24,000 nucleotides of DNA from Bacteroidaceae bacterium (GTDB lineage Bacteria > Bacteroidota > Bacteroidia > Bacteroidales > Bacteroidaceae): the NCBI GenBank assembly GCA_017524545.1, contig JAFXVN010000040.1:50985-74984 (forward strand), written 5' to 3'. Below are positions 3,720-24,000 of the stretch, in pieces. How positions within the stretch are numbered: the first letter of the stretch is position 1; every line of letters starts with the position of its first letter. Under the pieces are notes generated by a model. That model worked only from the letters and a program-made list of their open reading frames with translations, made no database searches and was not told where the DNA came from. The position numbers and the translations under genes are program-made.

Positions 3720-3786
3720 CAATTATCGAAATCTCAGTTATGGTTTTATCTGAATATTATGGCAAGAAAAGAACCCAATAAATCAT

Positions 3787-3827
3787 AAATCCCAAGGCAA
3801 AACATTCATGCTTTGGGATTTATTTTG
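3787..3827 (+). terminator. Terminator-like hairpin after the GH2 gene; second copy of the 116-157 hairpin
   Basis: Stem 3787-3799 / 3809-3821 is the same sequence as at 116-150. One C>T change converts a G:C pair to G:U. It is followed by ATTTTG. Confidence 0.55.
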
Positions 3828-3835
3828 TATCTTTG
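3828..3835 (+). promoter_or_regulatory. Bacteroidota -7 promoter box (TAnnTTTG) for the GH51 gene
   Basis: TATCTTTG lies 33 nt upstream of the ATG at 3869, in the same position relative to the hairpin as at 157-164. Confidence 0.45.
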
Positions 3836-3868
3836 CAAACCAGATAATCATCACAAAAAGTATAAGAT

Positions 3869-7021: not shown

Positions 7022-7171
7022 CCCAAATCGGTCATTAGGCACTGCGCGTCTCAAGTTTCATACAACACAAACCAAAGCGGGACGCTTACCAACGGGGAAC
7101 AAACTCCCGGGAAACACGATATAAAGCTTCCCATAACACGGTATAAAAGTCTTTTAGGCTCGTTATATAAT

Positions 7172-7255
7172 TATTTTCAAGGCGTGAAAATATATTATCA
7201 AGCTTTGAAAATATATTATCAAGCCTTGAAAATAGATTTTCAAAGCTTGAAAATA
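7172..7255. repeat. Four tandem 21-bp dyad-symmetric units (iteron or operator-like array)
   Basis: Units are TATTTTCAAGGCGTGAAAATA / TATTATCAAGCTTTGAAAATA / TATTATCAAGCCTTGAAAATA / GATTTTCAAAGCTTGAAAATA. Each has a TTTTCAAG..CTTGAAAA-type dyad, and the period is exactly 21 bp. Confidence 0.9.
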
Positions 7256-7263
7256 GTTTGTAA

Positions 7264-12309: not shown

Positions 12310-12367
12310 CTCTGCAATTTACAATTTGACGATTTACAATTTACGATTTATTTGTCGATTGGGCTAT
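12310..12367. repeat. Intercistronic AT-rich heptamer array (pyrG stop to purF GTG)
   Basis: The minus strand reads ...AATCGTA AATTGTA AATCGTC AAATTGTA AATTGcagagGTG. It is preceded by the CTATTTA G CTATTTA duplication that spans the pyrG stop. Confidence 0.85.
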
Positions 12368-14739
<2,372 letters not shown>

Positions 14740-16670: not shown

Positions 16671-17492
16671 ATGAAACAAAAGATACACTTCACGAAGATG
16701 CACGGCTGCGGCAACGACTATATCTATGTTGATACATTATTATATAATATAGAAGAGCCGTCGAAGTTAGCCTGCCTGTGGAGCGACCGTCATAAGGGCA
16801 TCGGTTCGGACGGGCTGGTGCTGATAGGGCGCAGCCCCATCCCTGAAGCGGATTTCACGATGCGCATCTTCAATGCCGACGGTTCGGAAGCGAAAATGTG
16901 CGGCAATGCCAGCCGCTGCATCGGAAAGTATCTTTATGAAAAGGGACTGACCTTGCAAACCCAAATCAGGCTGCTCACGCTCTCTGGCGTAAAAGTACTC
17001 AGCCTGCATTTGAATGACGGCTTCGTAGAAAGCGTGACGGTCGATATGGGCGAGCCGATGTTTGAGAACCCTAAGCAGTTTATGCCTTGCAGCGAGATAC
17101 TGCCACGAGGGTGCTTCGTAAGCATGGGCAACCCTCATTATGTCGTCTTCGTGGGCGATGTGGAACATACTGATGTCGCAGGCAGAGGCTTGCGACTGGA
17201 AAACCACCCTGCGTTTCCTGAACGCGCTAACATCGAATTTGCCGAAATGCGTCCTGACGGCATTCGAGTGCGCGTTTGGGAGCGCGGCAGTGGCATCACG
17301 ATGGCCTGCGGCACAGGAGCCTGCGCTACGGCTGTGGCTGCCTGCAAGACTGGACGCGCCGGACGCAAGAACCGTATCATCATGGACGGCGGCACCCTCG
17401 ACGTCGAATGGCGCGAAGCAGACAACCACGTCTATCTGTCAGGGCCAGCAGAGTTTGTATTCGAAGGAGAAATCGAGTTATTTACTATTTGA
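16671..17492 (+). CDS. dapF: Diaminopimelate epimerase
   Basis: 273 aa with [15 protein letters not shown], the catalytic Cys motifs MCGNASRC and MACGTGACA, and SMGNPHYV. Confidence 0.93.
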
Positions 17493-17587
17493 CGATTTAC
17501 TATTTACAATTTATTTTGTCATTTAGATATTTATTCATTCCGCAGTTAAAGTGAAATCGCCAAATAGTAAAGTCGTAAATAAATAGG
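17481..17587. repeat. AT-rich inverted repeat / long hairpin spanning the dapF stop
   Basis: TTTACTATTTGACGATTT (17481-17498) is complementary to AAATCGCCAAATAGTAAA (17554-17571) at 17 of 18 positions. The arms themselves contain TTTACTATTT direct repeats. Confidence 0.75.
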
Positions 17588-17662: not shown

Positions 17663-18829
17663 ATGATAAACCAGAACTACCTGAAACTCTCCGAGTCCTA
17701 TCTCTTCTCTGAGATTGCCCGGAAAGTGAAAGCATACAAGCAGGAAAATCCAGAAGCCGACATCATCAGTCTTGGCATAGGTGATGTGACTCAGCCGCTC
17801 GCCCCAGCAGTCATAGAGGCTCTGCATAAAGCGACGGACGAGATGGCCCAGAGCGCGACTTTTCGCGGCTATGGCCCAGAGCGCGGCTACGACTTCCTGC
17901 GTGAAGCCATCGTGCAGAACGATTTCCGCGCTTGTGGCATAGACATTGAGGCGGACGAAGTATTTGTGAGCGACGGAGCCAAGAGCGACACCGGAAACTT
18001 TCAGGAGCTTCTTTCGGCAGATTGTGTTGTGGCCGTCACTGACCCTGTTTATCCCGTGTATATCGACGCAAACACAATGGCAGGAAGGCGTATCATCAAG
18101 CTACCCTGCACACCCGAGAACGGCTTTGTGCCCGAATTGCCCACAGAGCATGTGGATGTTATTTACCTCTGTTATCCCAACAACCCGACAGGCACGACGC
18201 TGACTCGTGAGCAGCTGAAGAAGTGGGTGGATTATGCTCTGGCGAATGATGCGCTCATCTTCTACGATGCGGCATACGAAGCATATATCGCGAGCGAGGA
18301 CGTGCCGCACAGCATCTACGAGATTCCTGGCGCGAAGCAATGTGCTGTGGAGTTCCACTCATACTCCAAGACGGCAGGTTTCACAGGCATCCGTTGCGGA
18401 TATACGGTGGTGCCAAAAGCCTTGAAGGTCAATCTCAACCCGCTTTGGAACCGCCGACAATCCACGAAGTTCAACGGCACAAGCTACCTCAGTCAGCGTG
18501 CTGCCGAAGCTATCTATACCCCCGAAGGCAAGGCTCAGATTAAGGCGACTATCGCTTACTATATGGAGAATGCCCGACTGATGCGCGAGGCACTCACAAA
18601 CATGGGCTTCAAGGTCTATGGTGGCAAAGATGCACCTTACCTTTGGGTCAGCACGCCAAACGACATGAGTTCATGGGAGTTCTTCGACTGGATGCTCCAC
18701 TCGGCACATGTTGTCTGCACGCCTGGCGCAGGCTTTGGCCCAAGTGGCGAGGGCTTTGTTCGCCTCACAGCCTTTGGCACACACGTGAACACAGAGAAGG
18801 CACTTTGCCGCATCGCAAATAAATTGTAA
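17663..18829 (+). CDS. dapL: LL-diaminopimelate aminotransferase
   Basis: 388 aa with [30 protein letters not shown], and the PLP lysine region [15 protein letters not shown]. Confidence 0.9.
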
Positions 18830-18854
18830 AATTGTCAGATTGTAAAATTGTCAG
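18823..18854 (+). repeat. Perfect 16-bp tandem duplication bridging the dapL stop and the gltB ATG
   Basis: ATTGTAAAATTGTCAG occurs twice (18823-18838 and 18839-18854). The first copy contains the dapL TAA, and the second ends at the gltB ATG (18855). Confidence 0.9.
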
Positions 18855-21800
18855 ATGAATAAAGGACTTTATAGTGAAGCATACGAGCACGATGCCTGCG
18901 GCGTGGGCATGGTAGTGAACATTCACGGCGGCAAGAGTCACGAGTTGGTGGATAATGCGCTGAAGGTGCTGGAAAACATGGAGCATCGGGGTGCCGAGAC
19001 CAGGGACAAGACGGGCGACGGAGCCGGTATCATGGTGCAGATTCCGCACGAGTTCATCCTCTTGCAAGGCATTCCTGTTCCCGAGAAAGGTCGGTACGGC
19101 ACGGGGCTTGTGTTCCTTCCAAAGGATGAAAAGGCTCAGCAAACGATTCTTAGCGTGATGATAGAAGAGATTGAGCGCGAGGGACTGGAACTGATGCATG
19201 TGAGGGCAGTGCCGACGTGTCCCGAGGCTTTGGGTGCTGGGGCAAAGGAAGTGGAGCCGGAAATAAAGCAGATATTCGTGACGGGTGTGACGGAGGAACA
19301 GGCTCCGACGCTCGACCGCATATTATATAAGGTAAGGAAACGCATCGAGAACCGCATTACTGATGAGGACTTCTACATCTGTTCGCTTTCGTCAAAGAAT
19401 CTTATCTACAAGGGTATGCTGACCAGCGGGCAGTTGAGACGATATTTCCCCGACTTGTCAAGCCCTTACTTTACGAGCGGTCTTGCGCTGGTTCACTCGC
19501 GCTTCTCGACCAACACCTTCCCGAAGTGGAAACTGGCGCAGCCTTTCCGCTTGCTGGCTCATAATGGCGAAATCAACACCATTCGCGGCAATCGCGGTTG
19601 GATGAAGGCGAGGGAGAGTGTGCTTTCGAGCGAGGCTTTGGGCGACATCAAGGACTTGCGGCCTATCGTGCAGGAAGGCATGAGCGACTCGGCTTCGCTC
19701 GACAATGTCTTTGAGTTCCTCACTATGAGCGGCCTCTCTCTGCCGCAGGCGATGGCGATACTCGTGCCTGAGAGCTTCAACGACAAGAATCCTATCAGCG
19801 AGGATTTGAAGGCCTTCTATGAATATCACTCCATCCTGATGGAGCCTTGGGACGGGCCTGCGGCTTTGCTGTTTAGCGATGGACGCTTTGCAGGCGGTAT
19901 GCTCGACAGGAATGGTTTGCGCCCAAGCCGTTACACGATAACGAAGCAAGGCATGATGGTCGTGGCGAGCGAGGTCGGCGTGATGGACTTCGAACCGAGC
20001 GACGTGGTGAGCAAAGGGCGTTTGCAGCCGGGAAAGATTCTGCTCATCGACACGCAGGAAGGCAAGATATACTACGACGGCGAGATTAAGGAGCAGTTGG
20101 CGAAGGCGCATCCTTACAGGGAATGGCTCTCGACGAACCGCATCCAGCTGGAGAAACTCAAGAGCGGTCGGCATGTGGAGAACTCGGTGGAGAACTACGA
20201 GCGCAAGCTCATCACCTTCGGCTTCGGTCAGGAAGACATCGACAGAGCCATCATTCCGATGGCAACAGCAGGACAGGAGCCTGTTGCAGCGATGGGCAAC
20301 GACACGCCGCTGGCAGTCATCAGCGACCGTCCGCAGATTCTCTTCAACTACTTCCGCCAGCAGTTTGCGCAGGTAACGAACCCCGCTATTGACCCTATTC
20401 GTGAGGAACTGGTGATGAGCCTTACAGAATACATCGGAGCCGTCGGCACAAACATCCTCACGCCCGATGCCTCGAACTGCAAGATGGTTCGCCTGCCGCA
20501 GCCCGTGCTCACGAACACGCAACTCGACATCCTATGTAATATAAGGTATAAGGGATTTAAGACAATCAAGTTGCCAATGACCAGCCCCCTCCCAACCTTC
20601 CCCAAGGGGGAGGAGCCAGATTGGGATAAGGCCGGCGAGGCATTGAGAAATGCACTTGACAAGCTTTGTAAAGATGCAGAAGAAGCAGTAGATAACGGGT
20701 ATAACTATATCATACTGACTGACAAGATAGATCTCCTCCCCCTTGGGGGAGGTCGGGAGGGGGCTTTCTACATACCCTCATTGTTGGCTGTGAGTGCCGT
20801 TCATCACTATCTGATTAGTGTCGGCAAGCGCGTACAGACGGCTCTTATTGTGGAGAGCGGCGAGATTCGCGAAGTGATGCACGCGGCTTTGTTGTTAGGC
20901 TATGGGGCAAGTGCCATTTGTCCCTATATGACTTTTGCTGTGCTGGACGACCTCGTGAAGCGACACAAGATACAAGAAGAGTATGCCACAGCAGAAGCGA
21001 ACTACATCAAGGCGGTCGATAAGGGCTTGAAGAAAGTGATGTCGAAGATGGACATCTCAACCATCCGCAGCTATCGTGGCGCAAAGATATTCGAGAGCAT
21101 CGGACTGAGCGAAGATTTGCTGAGAAGGTACTTCGGAACAGAAGTCAGCACTATTGGCGGCATAGGGCTGAAGGAAATTGCGAGGGATGCGATTCGCTTG
21201 CACGAGGAGGCCTTTGGTTGGGTATGTCGCGTTGGCAACGCGACATACGGGACGCCAGCCCTCCAAAATAACGGTCAGTTCTCTTGGCGCAAGGACGGCA
21301 TCCTTCATGCTTGGAATCCCGACACGATTGCCAACCTGCAGATTGCCACAAGGCTTGGTTCTTACAAGAAGTTCAAGGAGTGGGCAAAGCTTGTCGATGA
21401 GAAGGAGAAGCCCATCTTCATTCGCGACTTCTTTGGCTTCAAGAAGGCTGCAAAGCCAACGCCTCTCGAGGAGGTGGAGCCAGTGGAAAGCATCGTGCGG
21501 CACTTCGTGACGGGAGCGATGAGTTTTGGTGCTTTGAGCATCGAGGCACACGAGGCACTTGCTTTGGCTATGAACAAGCTGGGCACGCGAAGCAACACAG
21601 GCGAAGGCGGCGAGGACAATGCCCGCTACCATTCGGAGGTCGATGGTGTTTCGCTCTCCAGCAAGACCAAGCAGATTGCCAGTGGTCGATTTGGCGTGAC
21701 GGCGGAATACCTTGTCAATGCCGAAGAGATACAGATTAAGGTTGCCCAGGGCGCGAAGCCTGGCGAAGGCGGACAGCTGCCTGGCTTCAAGGTGAACGAG

Positions 21801-23411
21801 ATTATCGCCAAGACACGAAATGCCATTCCTGGGATTAGCTTGATAAGTCCACCACCGCATCACGACATCTATTCTATCGAAGACCTTGCGCAGCTTATCT
21901 TCGACTTGAAGAATATCAATCCGACGGCTGCCGTGAGCGTCAAACTTGTTGCCGAGAGTGGCGTAGGAACCATTGCCGCTGGTGTGGCAAAGGCAAAGGC
22001 CGACCTGATAGTCATCAGCGGCAGTGAGGGCGGTACCGGTGCTTCGCCTGCTTCGAGTATGCGCTTTGCAGGCATCAGTCCTGAGATTGGACTTGCCGAG
22101 ACGCAGCAGACGCTCGTTATCAATGGGCTTCGTAACCAAGTTCGCCTCCAAACGGACGGGCAGTTGAAGACAGCAAAGGATGTCATCATCATGGCGATGC
22201 TTGGTGCGGACGAGTTCTCGTTTGGCACTCTGCCACTGATTGTTCTTGGTTGCGTGATGATGCGCAAGTGCAACACGAACACTTGTCCCGTTGGTGTGGC
22301 GACACAAGATGAAAGGCTGAGGGCGCGTTTCATGGGCAAGGCAGAGTATGTGGTGAACTTCTTCACCTTCCTTGCCGAGCAGGTTCGCGAGTACCTTAGC
22401 GAGATGGGAGTGCATAAACTAAAGGACATCATCGGCCATACAGAATTGATAGAGATAAAGACCGCAACTGCAACTGACAAGCAGAAGACCATCGACTTCA
22501 GCCGTTTGCTGCACAAGCCAGAGACGGATAAACCGCTCCATTGGGACAGAGGCGAGTTCACGAAGGTCAGTGGCGTGAAGGATGAGGAGATTATCAAGGC
22601 TGCACAGAAGAGCATTGACGATCAGGAAGAGATAACGCTTGACTTTGCCATCAAGAATACCGACCGCGCAGTTGGCACGATGCTATCAGGCATGATTGCC
22701 AAGAAATATGGTGAGGCTGGTTTGCCCGACGGCACGATTAACATCAAGTTCAAGGGTTCGGCTGGCCAAAGCTTTGGTGCTTTTGCAGTTCGAGGTCTGA
22801 ACCTCAGGCTCGAAGGCGAGACGAACGACTACTTCGGCAAGGGGTTGAGTGGCGGACGCATCAGCATCCTGCCTCCTGCGAGGAGTAATGCGGAGTTCCA
22901 TGCAGAGGACAATATCATCGCAGGCAACACAGGCCTCTATGGCGCGACGAGCGGCGAGCTGTATGTCAACGGTCGCGTGGGCGAACGCTTTGGCGTGCGC
23001 AACTCTGGAGCTATTGCCGTCATAGAAGGCGCAGGCGACCATTGTTGCGAGTACATGACTGGCGGTCGGGTGGTTGTTCTTGGCAAGACGGGGCGCAACT
23101 TCGCAGCCGGTATGAGTGGCGGCGTCGCTTACGTCTATGACCCAGACCACACCTTCGACTACTTCTGCAACATGGACATGGTGGAGATAAACCTTGTGGA
23201 GGACACCGTCTCGCGCAAGGAACTGCTCGAACTTATCCGTCAGCATTACCTCCACACAGGTTCTGCTCTTGCAGGACGGATGCTCGATGACTGGCAGCGC
23301 TACGTCGAGGACTTCATACAAGTCGTGCCAATCGAGTACAAGCGCGTCCTCGAAGAAGAAAAGATGAAAGAACTGCAACGGAAAATTGCAGAGGTACAAC
23401 GCGACTACTGA
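18855..23411 (+). CDS. gltB: Glutamate synthase large subunit
   Basis: 1518 aa with the N-terminal amidotransferase Cys (EHDAC|GVGMV), the FMN and 3Fe-4S region (CVMMRKCNTNTCPVGVATQD), and the GXGXG C-terminal domain. It carries three in-phase palindromic modules. Confidence 0.95.
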   Translation: MNKGLYSEAYEHDACGVGMVVNIHGGKSHELVDNALKVLENMEHRGAETRDKTGDGAGIMVQIPHEFILLQGIPVPEKGRYGTGLVFLPKDEKAQQTILSVMIEEIEREGLELMHVRAVPTCPEALGAGAKEVEPEIKQIFVTGVTEEQAPTLDRILYKVRKRIENRITDEDFYICSLSSKNLIYKGMLTSGQLRRYFPDLSSPYFTSGLALVHSRFSTNTFPKWKLAQPFRLLAHNGEINTIRGNRGWMKARESVLSSEALGDIKDLRPIVQEGMSDSASLDNVFEFLTMSGLSLPQAMAILVPESFNDKNPISEDLKAFYEYHSILMEPWDGPAALLFSDGRFAGGMLDRNGLRPSRYTITKQGMMVVASEVGVMDFEPSDVVSKGRLQPGKILLIDTQEGKIYYDGEIKEQLAKAHPYREWLSTNRIQLEKLKSGRHVENSVENYERKLITFGFGQEDIDRAIIPMATAGQEPVAAMGNDTPLAVISDRPQILFNYFRQQFAQVTNPAIDPIREELVMSLTEYIGAVGTNILTPDASNCKMVRLPQPVLTNTQLDILCNIRYKGFKTIKLPMTSPLPTFPKGEEPDWDKAGEALRNALDKLCKDAEEAVDNGYNYIILTDKIDLLPLGGGREGAFYIPSLLAVSAVHHYLISVGKRVQTALIVESGEIREVMHAALLLGYGASAICPYMTFAVLDDLVKRHKIQEEYATAEANYIKAVDKGLKKVMSKMDISTIRSYRGAKIFESIGLSEDLLRRYFGTEVSTIGGIGLKEIARDAIRLHEEAFGWVCRVGNATYGTPALQNNGQFSWRKDGILHAWNPDTIANLQIATRLGSYKKFKEWAKLVDEKEKPIFIRDFFGFKKAAKPTPLEEVEPVESIVRHFVTGAMSFGALSIEAHEALALAMNKLGTRSNTGEGGEDNARYHSEVDGVSLSSKTKQIASGRFGVTAEYLVNAEEIQIKVAQGAKPGEGGQLPGFKVNEIIAKTRNAIPGISLISPPPHHDIYSIEDLAQLIFDLKNINPTAAVSVKLVAESGVGTIAAGVAKAKADLIVISGSEGGTGASPASSMRFAGISPEIGLAETQQTLVINGLRNQVRLQTDGQLKTAKDVIIMAMLGADEFSFGTLPLIVLGCVMMRKCNTNTCPVGVATQDERLRARFMGKAEYVVNFFTFLAEQVREYLSEMGVHKLKDIIGHTELIEIKTATATDKQKTIDFSRLLHKPETDKPLHWDRGEFTKVSGVKDEEIIKAAQKSIDDQEEITLDFAIKNTDRAVGTMLSGMIAKKYGEAGLPDGTINIKFKGSAGQSFGAFAVRGLNLRLEGETNDYFGKGLSGGRISILPPARSNAEFHAEDNIIAGNTGLYGATSGELYVNGRVGERFGVRNSGAIAVIEGAGDHCCEYMTGGRVVVLGKTGRNFAAGMSGGVAYVYDPDHTFDYFCNMDMVEINLVEDTVSRKELLELIRQHYLHTGSALAGRMLDDWQRYVEDFIQVVPIEYKRVLEEEKMKELQRKIAEVQRDY
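20583..20615. repeat. 33-nt GC-rich palindromic unit, reverse orientation, in phase in gltB
   Basis: AGCCCCCTCCCAACCTTCCCCAAGGGGGAGGAG is 11 codons, SPLPTFPKGEE. It differs at 1 nt from the reverse complement of the pyrG unit at 13631-13663. Confidence 0.9.
20733..20765. repeat. 33-nt GC-rich palindromic unit, forward orientation, in phase in gltB
   Basis: CTCCTCCCCCTTGGGGGAGGTCGGGAGGGGGCT is 11 codons, LLPLGGGREGA. It differs at 1 nt from the pyrG unit and matches 31 of 33 positions as an inverted repeat of 20583-20615. Confidence 0.9.
21222..21248. repeat. 27-nt perfect palindrome in phase in gltB
   Basis: GTATGTCGCGTTG-G-CAACGCGACATAC has 13-bp perfect arms and a 1-nt centre. It is exactly 9 codons (VCRVGNATY) and starts on a codon boundary. 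Confidence 0.85.
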
Positions 23412-23418
23412 TAAATTT

Positions 23419-23492
23419 GACAATTGGACAATTTACAATTGGACAATTGCCACAAAGAAATTGTAAAATTGTGAAATCGTAAAATTGTAAAA
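23419..23492. repeat. Segmented AT-rich hairpin plus octamer array between gltB and gltD
   Basis: The left arm has ACAATT four times (23420-23448) and the right arm AATTGT/AATCGT four times (23459-23488), with a 10-nt loop. The right arm runs into AAAATATCAAG ATG (gltD). Confidence 0.85.
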
Positions 23493-23499
23493 TATCAAG

Positions 23500-24000
23500 A
23501 TGGGAAATCCTAAAGCATTTCTGACTGTGCCTCGCAAAGAGGCTGGATACAGACCGATTCACGACCGCATACATGACTTTGGCGAAGTGGAACAGACGCT
23601 CAACACGCGCGACAGGCAGGAACAGGCCAGCCGTTGCATGGATTGCGGCGTGCCTTTCTGCCATTGGGCTTGTCCGTTGGGCAACAAGGACCCCGAATGG
23701 AATGACGCGCTTTACAAAGGAGAGTGGGAAACGGCCTACAAGCTCTTGAAGAAGACCAATCCCTTCCCTGAGTTCACAGGCCGCATCTGCCCTGCGCTTT
23801 GCGAGAAGGCTTGCGTGCTCTATCATACCACGGGCGAGGCTGTCACCAATCGCGAGAATGAATGTGCCATTGCCGAGCGAGCCTTCCTGGAAGGATATGT
23901 GACCATTGAGCACCCCAAGCGCAACGGACTTCGCGTGGCTGTCGTCGGTAGTGGTCCTGCAGGTCTTGCAGCAGCCAATGCCCTCAACCTTATGGGTTAT
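23500..24000 (+). CDS. gltD: Glutamate synthase small subunit (NADPH), 5' part; continues beyond the window
   Basis: MGNPKAFLTVPRKEAGYRPIHDRIHDFGEV...ASRCMDCGVPFCH...CPLGN...FPEFTGRICPALCEKAC...VAVVGSGPAGLAAA. The frame is open to position 24000. It is absent from the ORF track because no stop lies in the window. Confidence 0.9.
   Translation, partial: MGNPKAFLTVPRKEAGYRPIHDRIHDFGEVEQTLNTRDRQEQASRCMDCGVPFCHWACPLGNKDPEWNDALYKGEWETAYKLLKKTNPFPEFTGRICPALCEKACVLYHTTGEAVTNRENECAIAERAFLEGYVTIEHPKRNGLRVAVVGSGPAGLAAANALNLMGY

Follow-up and report, generated by a model that had tools for sequence, protein, structure and literature searches.

Rickettsia palindromic elements (RPEs), reportedly described by Ogata et al. 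in 2000, measure about 100-150 bp and are restricted to Rickettsia, and we know of no enzyme associated with them. More generally, no enzyme partner has, to our knowledge, been identified for the palindromic repeats that lie in frame in essential genes, whether RPEs or the intragenic members of the repetitive extragenic palindromic (REP) sequences. Here we describe a 33-nt unit found inside gltB, which encodes the large subunit of glutamate synthase, and pyrG, which encodes CTP synthase, in a 24,000-nt stretch of DNA from a Bacteroidaceae bacterium (assembly GCA_017524545.1, contig JAFXVN010000040.1, positions 50,985 to 74,984), which we refer to as the window. These units are probably the terminal arms of a family of small selfish cassettes built around a DUF559 gene, whose product we take to be a Vsr-like endonuclease of the PD-(D/E)XK type, and the copies in the window are probably remnants of that family. 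Since the repeats described here have a physical link to one particular nuclease gene, the origin of such in-frame inserts becomes testable.

The first-pass annotation of this DNA had likened the unit to RPEs and to REP-type hairpins, and as a functional analogy to RPEs and intragenic REPs the comparison holds. In both RPEs (summarized in PMC3733652) and the units described here, short palindromic repeats lie in frame in many unrelated functional genes, are tolerated as loop residues and show no obvious target-site duplication. The two differ in size and organization, the unit in the window being 33 nt long, about 76% GC, one arm of inverted pairs and linked to DUF559. They also differ in their hosts, which here are Bacteroidota and metagenome-assembled genomes (MAGs) labeled as other phyla rather than Rickettsia; the comparison is one of descriptions and not of sequences.

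With intragenic REPs (Di Nocera et al. 2013; PMC3733652) and with the REPIN doublets mobilized by RAYTs, the REP-associated tyrosine transposases (Bertels & Rainey 2011; PMC3116915), the units share the form of an imperfect palindrome of 20-40 nt that commonly occurs as an inverted doublet. Some copies of both lie in tRNA synthetase and DNA repair genes, and both form populations held near a master sequence. The arm folds as a hairpin, and 23 of 33 adjacent pairs are inverted with a fixed polarity. However, the gene bracketed here is a PD-(D/E)XK nuclease of the DUF559 family and not a Y1 HUH transposase, and the intragenic share of the copies is much larger.

Miniature inverted-repeat transposable elements (MITEs) resemble the family in having terminal inverted repeats, here 33 to ~50 nt long, and short noncoding derivatives that share the ends of a gene-carrying element. 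The insert in pyrG is such a short element, 81 nt long with terminal inverted repeats, and DUF559 cassettes share both of its arm types and subterminal sequence. Their gene, however, encodes a small nuclease and no known transposase, DDE or other; no target-site duplication was found in the comparisons given below, and the ends are free of stop codons and read as protein. Finally, Vsr-like (EDxHD) homing endonucleases such as I-Bth0305I, and the intein and intron homing elements of housekeeping genes (PMC3239194; PMC3424549), share with DUF559 a Vsr-like nuclease fold (PF04480; the match to the structure 3r3p is weak) and a typical niche, namely fixed, conserved sites of IleRS, LeuRS, MetH, PurL and RecG across habitats. 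They differ in that the DUF559 copies tested inside genes are all in frame in the host ORF (open reading frame), where the nuclease stays in the host frame behind arm-encoded linkers with no sign of an intein or intron in the scans reported below. Free-standing copies in operons also exist.

In-frame inserts in gltB and pyrG

Matches to the 33-mer CTCCTCCCCCTTGGGGGAGGTYGGGAGGGGGCT lie at 13631-13663 (+ strand, no mismatch), 20583-20615 (- strand, one mismatch) and 20733-20765 (+ strand, no mismatch), and 100 dinucleotide shuffles of the window gave no match. The first lies in pyrG (12368-14098, - strand), an ORF with homologues carrying PF06418 and PF00117, whose true start is probably at 14050. 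The other two lie in gltB (18855-23411, + strand), a 1518-codon ORF identified by homologues carrying PF04898, PF01645 and PF00310 and by matches in the Protein Data Bank (PDB). All three are at codon phase 0, at gene offsets of 435 in pyrG and of 1728 and 1878 in gltB. The first-pass annotation had described the gltB pair as two oppositely oriented copies that begin on codon boundaries, are 11 codons long and add SPLPTFPKGEE and LLPLGGGREGA; we recovered the same positions, phases and translations. It had also correctly placed a near-identical copy in pyrG, read in the frame of its orientation-mate, but had overlooked a fourth, diverged and inverted copy in the same gene at 13583-13615. Two properties that it had singled out proved less informative. 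The 33-mer does lack stop codons in all six frames, but this follows from its base composition, as 46% of composition-matched shuffles lack them too, and we rejected it as a special signal. Likewise, the core of a single arm can form a hairpin (7-bp stem, 4-nt loop, -7.3 kcal/mol), but its stability is no better than that of shuffled sequences (z = -0.16) and was also discarded as a signal.

At the first gltB site, the left-type arm (20583-20615; AGCCCCCTCCCAACCTTCCCCAAGGGGGAGGAG on the gltB strand) adds exactly 33 nt relative to the empty allele L106. At the second, the right-type arm (20733-20765; CTCCTCCCCCTTGGGGGAGGTCGGGAGGGGGCT) brings a net gain of seven codons, 11 being gained and about four host codons lost. 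A search with the GltB segment showed that many Prevotellaceae orthologues lack both units and read KLPMLFEx-xKGExGL and DRDxD-ExHAA-IPSLL at these positions, and both sites correspond to loops of variable length in solved GltB structures. Among the relatives, L108 carries a decayed version, L107 a copy in another frame, and L071 a different GC-rich hairpin repeat at the second site. The 117 nt between the arms (20616-20732; PDWDKAGEALRNALDKLCKDAEEAVDNGYNYIILTDKID) are native gltB, with homologous sequence in arm-free orthologues and in the solved structures, and we therefore rejected the idea that the whole 183-nt region is one MITE.

The pyrG insert consists of two inverted arms 15 nt apart and totals 81 nt, or 27 codons. 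On the gene strand, it comprises a left arm of 11 translated residues (13631-13663; AGCCCCCTCCCAACCTCCCCCAAGGGGGAGGAG), a spacer translated as TYSPN (13616-13630; ACCTACTCACCTAAT) and the diverged inverted copy of 11 residues (13583-13615; CATCCCCCCTTGGGGGGACAAGAGGGGGGCCTT), which is of the right-arm type found in DUF559 cassettes. In most of 120 orthologues, the PyrG loop that ends before DFVIT has 14-18 residues; in others it reaches up to 59, and the longer loops are filled by assorted GC-rich doublets that resemble one another in design. When the N-domain of PyrG was modeled with AlphaFold2 (mean predicted local distance difference test [pLDDT] score of 80.9), the insert came out as a low-confidence coil (residues 133-153, pLDDT <50) preceded by a helix (115-128) and followed by a strand (158-163). 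Phase 0, absence from orthologues and a modeled coil together give the RPE-type picture of an in-frame palindrome at permissive loops. The units of gltB and pyrG are real insertions and not ancestral loops, because most Prevotellaceae orthologues of GltB and PyrG lack them, as the first-pass annotation had proposed for the loop of GltB. Their translation would yield junction-spanning peptides, predicted to include LPMTSPLPTFPK and IDLLPLGGGR.

Two further observations concern pyrG. In one PyrG orthologue (P0354), the hairpin loop of the left arm is split by a nested insert of 17 residues (SPLPTF-CPPSLTLPNCSASNRQL-PRGEE), and the loop of an arm may itself be an insertion target. The pyrG gene of the window also carries a second, unrelated in-frame insert of 12 residues (12605-12640, - strand) encoded by A-rich direct repeats (AGTGAAAAGTTAAAAGTGAAAAGTGAAAAATTG). 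Peptides like SEELRVKSEEF or SEKGTVKSEKF occur in this other PyrG loop of orthologues, which suggests a second, AT-rich family of in-frame repeats.

DUF559 cassettes and their arms

The first-pass annotation spoke of a mobile or expanding hairpin. We found instead that the 33-mer is not autonomous but belongs to an inverted pair, of which it forms one arm, with DUF559 genes enclosed between the two. When copies less than 400 nt apart were paired, 23 pairs had AGCCCCC outermost and GGAGGAG innermost, one had the opposite polarity and nine were direct, with spacers of 12 to 272 nt between the arms. Short doublets have a palindromic center (CCATCCGGATGG), in a composite of ~180 nt that was seen repeatedly the inverted repeat continues farther inward (…CCATNCGGGNTGTT…), and other doublets and composites span 80-180 nt. 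Nine DUF559 genes were identified by tblastn in the loci selected by the pattern of the arm. In seven of these, a copy of the 33-mer with 0-2 mismatches serves as the upstream left arm, 47-154 nt before the DUF559 match, with additional arm copies in between at L050 and L080. Five of the seven cassettes have CTTCCCCCCTTGGGGGGACACGAGGGGGGCTT or CATCCCCCCTTGGGGGGATAAGAGGGGGGCTT as their right arm, the type to which the second pyrG copy of the window belongs; at L018 and L096 the right arm is a different variant but follows the same design. At L096, a complete DUF559 domain (positions 738-1109; PF04480, E = 6e-34) lies in frame in an IleRS ORF between HHYPF and FPADFIAEGVDQTRGWF, flanked by the left-arm peptide and then by SLPLGEGWGGA, encoded by the right arm.

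The linkage was also seen from the side of the nuclease. We drew an independent sample of 80 DUF559 loci from metagenomes, with protein homology as the sole criterion, and compared it with displaced control windows; 71% of the loci had flanking inverted repeats above the 95th percentile of the controls. Nearly all of these repeats were GC-rich arms of the type AGCCCCC plus hairpin, and those of L158, L178 and L131 were nearly equal to the 33-mer of the window. Moreover, the similarity of the arms followed that of the proteins, rising from 0.45 for DUF559 identities below 60% to 0.76 at 70-85% and 0.96 above 85% (Spearman r = 0.20, a value reached in 1 of 2000 permutations). A search of the PDB with DUF559 returned 3hrl (E = 1.5e-20) and a weak match (E = 2e-3) to 3r3p, deposited as "Mobile intron protein". 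A survey of PD-(D/E)XK proteins places 3r3p in the Vsr/DUF559 clade, which includes a group I intron homing endonuclease.

In the same sample, the frame stayed open for 60 codons or more to either side of the gene in 55 of the 80 loci, and all 17 open loci that we scanned lay inside IleRS, MetH, PurL, RecG or LeuRS. The in-frame loci come from diverse metagenomes, including soil, marine, rumen and gut (L119-L198). In MetH the DUF559 domain sits between two B12-binding domains and in LeuRS just before the editing domain, the latter position being site 2 of rumen Prevotellaceae, where doublets without the ORF occur. The left arms of the 17 cassettes are read as xPxPxSPKGGE and the right arms as LPLGEGWGGA, the two frames that are also the commonest in copies without the ORF. 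Joined to its host by these arm-encoded linkers, the nuclease domain is presumably part of the mature protein. None of the families reported for the 17 host ORFs was an intein domain, and no Rfam family reached its gathering threshold in a scan of the window and five pattern-selected loci, the 17 host ORFs lying outside that scan.

A full cassette is an element of ~0.5 kb. It comprises a left arm (an outer AGCCCCC, 3-6 nt, then a hairpin of C-run, loop and G-run), the DUF559 gene and a mirror-image right arm ending in GGGGGCT. The doublet in pyrG stands in a deletion-derivative relationship to such an element. It is identical at 72 of 81 positions to the 484-nt DUF559 cassette of L014 minus its interior, and this includes part of the 15-nt spacer, which is partly alignable to the inner ends of that cassette.

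Cassettes also occur free-standing, wedged between operon genes (GluRS|DUF559|KdtA; capsule loci), with arms of the same design. At L110 (2440-2900) and L018 (5850-6330), stop and start codons of the neighboring genes overlap the arms, the TAG in gTAGCCCCC being an example, and gene callers run GluRS and KdtA through the arms, so that annotated gene ends are altered. At two capsule-type loci (L109, 4147-4491; L115, 4278-4661), small genes of the PDDEXK_3 and 23S_rRNA_IVP/bAvd families lie near free-standing DUF559 genes; located between biosynthetic genes, they may be further selfish inserts.

Dispersal and reading frame of the arms

The exact 27-nt core of the unit was found in 105 stretches of species-representative genomes, mostly rumen Prevotellaceae/Bacteroidaceae MAGs. 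Other carriers were Mangrovibacterium, Draconibacterium, Prolixibacteraceae, Cytophagales and Ferruginibacter, as well as MAGs labeled Opitutae and Tepidisphaerales (labels as deposited), and the GC content of the hosts ranged from 40% to 62%. The DNA that we fetched contained 154 copies with up to five mismatches, and the collection stretch closest to the window, L009, is ~90% identical to it. Viral contigs gave no match to the 27-mer and plasmids none to the doublet.

To identify the host genes, we ran Pfam scans of 50 ORFs spanning copies. Supported hosts included tRNA synthetases (LeuRS at three sites, AlaRS, ArgRS, IleRS and Glu/GlnRS), the DNA repair proteins UvrA and RecG, metabolic enzymes (an ArgC-type semialdehyde dehydrogenase, GltD, glycogen synthase, an FGGY kinase, a MiaB-like enzyme and a ketoacyl synthase) and hydrolases (S9 peptidases, a sulfatase, GH2 and GH30). 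In LeuRS of related MAGs, whose nucleotide flanks are 85-94% identical, presence/absence and partial decay were seen at all three sites. By rough extrapolation, ~40% of copies lie inside real genes, a share below that of random insertion and far above that of classical extragenic repeats.

Use of the reading frame was strongly biased. Over ~33 distinct Pfam-supported sites, the six frames were used 21, 8, 3, 1, 0 and 0 times (chi-square against equal use, P = 9e-12), which places 29 sites in the two dominant frames; ORFs that read through the arms in other frames mostly lack Pfam support and are probably not genes. We considered whether the bias derives from a fixed phase between arm and ORF in free-standing cassettes and rejected this, as the phases there are 1, 1, 2, 1, 2 and 2. 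Since this phase is not conserved, the frame is set by residence in the host gene, and the bias is confined to cassettes inside genes. With most orthologues free of the segments, the 33-mer dispersed and its copies in supported genes biased in frame, each refuting condition named by the first-pass annotation was decided in favor of its reading. The first-pass annotation had seen a possible mechanism in the match between the length of the unit and the reading frame; a length that is a multiple of three and freedom from stop codons are better explained by composition and purifying selection than by design.

Persistence in genes would then depend on two features of the arms. They are nearly free of A and T and hence of stop codons, and two of their frames encode linkers rich in Pro, Gly and Ser, so that insertions in essential enzymes would survive selection where they fall in permissive surface loops or in linkers between domains, and would be translated as extra loop residues. 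Insertions that shift the frame or contain a stop would be purged.

Origin of the window copies and neighboring repeats

The window holds gene-less derivatives only, namely the 81-nt doublet in pyrG and the two solo arms in gltB. In the history that we infer for them, the DUF559 protein would be an active nuclease that cuts at or between arms, and break repair or gene conversion, with the arms as short portable homology, would copy the cassette between arm-bearing sites. Loss of the ORF by internal deletion would leave doublets and solo arms, and gene conversion would hold many arms near the consensus. In agreement with such resetting, the gltB junction carries a near-perfect arm in four lineages (29-32 of 33 positions identical in pairwise comparison), the flanks of which are 74-93% identical.

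Several points weigh against this account. A tblastn search found no DUF559 gene in the 24,000 nt of the window. Comparisons of filled and empty alleles of gltB and LeuRS showed fuzzy junctions, the loss of a few host codons and no target-site duplication, although these alleles are 74-94% identical and short duplications may be obscured. The arrangement of a left and a right arm around native coding sequence, seen in gltB (117 nt) and again in gltD of a related MAG (L026, 6298-6411; 48 nt, ~16 residues), is predicted by none of the models considered. A PD-(D/E)XK nuclease alone cannot account for insertion at new, nonhomologous sites, and we infer its cutting, the site of the cut and transposition from sequence. 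Identical DUF559 proteins are found repeatedly in one genomic context, so that movement is slow over the timescale sampled. Finally, arms were more alike than their flanks (97.9% versus 89.1% identity; arms higher in 35 of 39 pairs), but this difference is inflated, as the loci were chosen by exact match, and protein-based samples contain decayed copies (P0001, P0242). We therefore downgraded it from a clean sign of constraint.

It is possible, but in our view unlikely, that the arms form an independent REP- or RPE-like family in which DUF559 genes are secondary homing genes that target the centers of doublets, the window copies never having been parts of a cassette. Such a family would fit the presence of 154 arms against nine DUF559 genes in the same loci and the existence of solo arms, as in gltB. 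The palindromic center of short doublets could be the cleavage site, and the DUF559 gene always lies between arms, like a homing gene that splits its own target. However, the pyrG doublet keeps the heterologous left/right pair of the cassette together with part of its inner ends, which internal deletion explains better, and the arms co-diverge with the DUF559 gene; no other candidate for a mobilizing enzyme was found. Descent from cassettes and independence of the arms overlap as readings, and sequence alone cannot separate them.

Very improbable, by comparison, is mobilization by a RAYT, as for the REPs and REPINs of Pseudomonas and enterobacteria. A 33-nt imperfect palindrome that is often found in inverted doublets does recall REPINs, and REPs are documented in genes that include tRNA synthetase and repair genes (PMC3733652). 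Yet the 33-mer contains neither the GTAG nor the CGTC tag, nor a complement of either (criterion from PMC3733652), and the copies are not mainly extragenic. The gene that the arms bracket is DUF559. A tblastn search of ~0.8 Mb around copies with approximate query sequences, and thus a weak test, yielded one RAYT-like ORF (L044, 5496-6401, - strand), ~5.4 kb from a copy and with no arms beside it. With the tag missing and no arms adjoining the only RAYT-like gene found, we rejected membership in the REP/RAYT system. The L044 protein, encoded in a carrier MAG, is a Y1 (HUH) protein of 301 residues with a C-terminal extension.

We give equally little credence to the view that the segments are host-selected modules, kept as flexible linkers or for a regulatory structure in mRNA or DNA. 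Several orthologous copies do stay near the consensus, synonymous positions included, with flanks of 74-90% identity, and in the gltB mRNA the two arms can pair around the native 117 nt into a 32-bp stem (minimum free energy of -101 kcal/mol, z = -7.6). The PyrG and GltB loops have also been occupied repeatedly by such units in different lineages. But repeated occupation is expected from survivorship in essential genes, most orthologues do without the segments, the 33-mer recurs between genes and in dozens of proteins unrelated to one another, and arms are decayed or partly deleted in P0001, P0242 and L034. There is practically no chance that the segments go back to ancestral loops of low complexity or to an artifact of assembly or sequencing, as only their GC-rich, low-complexity look speaks for it, against identical nucleotides at unrelated loci that no shuffle of the window reproduced, presence/absence polymorphism among orthologues, units in many independent assemblies and studies, and a position that is always in frame within essential genes.

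DUF559 cassettes could represent an undescribed class of selfish element, a suggestion that we make tentatively and rate below an even chance. Its members would consist of a Vsr-like endonuclease gene between stop-free, GC-rich hairpin arms and would reside in frame and unspliced at conserved sites of essential genes, namely IleRS, LeuRS, MetH, PurL and RecG and, in the form of remnants, GltB and PyrG, the arms doubling as a portable homing site or homology arms and as coding sequence for flexible linkers. A literature search, which left most subscription journals uncovered, turned up no account of the arms, of the peptides that they encode or of a cassette with DUF559. Such a class would mean that scars of 11 residues add loops to proteins across many bacterial phyla. 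The cassette model would add a third route into essential genes beside introns and inteins, one that runs in frame behind self-encoded linkers, and offers a recurrent source of new protein-loop residues. Annotation would change as well, with a different meaning given to the DUF559 "domains" of tRNA synthetases and MetH and to ORFs that are extended or fused, and the insertion polymorphisms could mark strains of rumen Prevotellaceae.

The window contains other repeats. AT-rich intergenic repeats (TTTACAATTTGACGATTTACAATT, AAATTGTAAAATTGTCAGATTG) occur at 12317-12370, 17480-17533, 18816-18856 and 23417-23517, just beyond the ends of pyrG and gltB as well as at other gene boundaries. An intergenic region at 7169-7258 contains a tandem array of four 21-nt palindromic units (TATTTTCAAGGCGTGAAAATA). 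A 64-nt repeat whose two copies (102-165 and 3773-3836) are 91% identical and each lie at the end of a gene contains a hairpin with a T-run after it and looks like a terminator.

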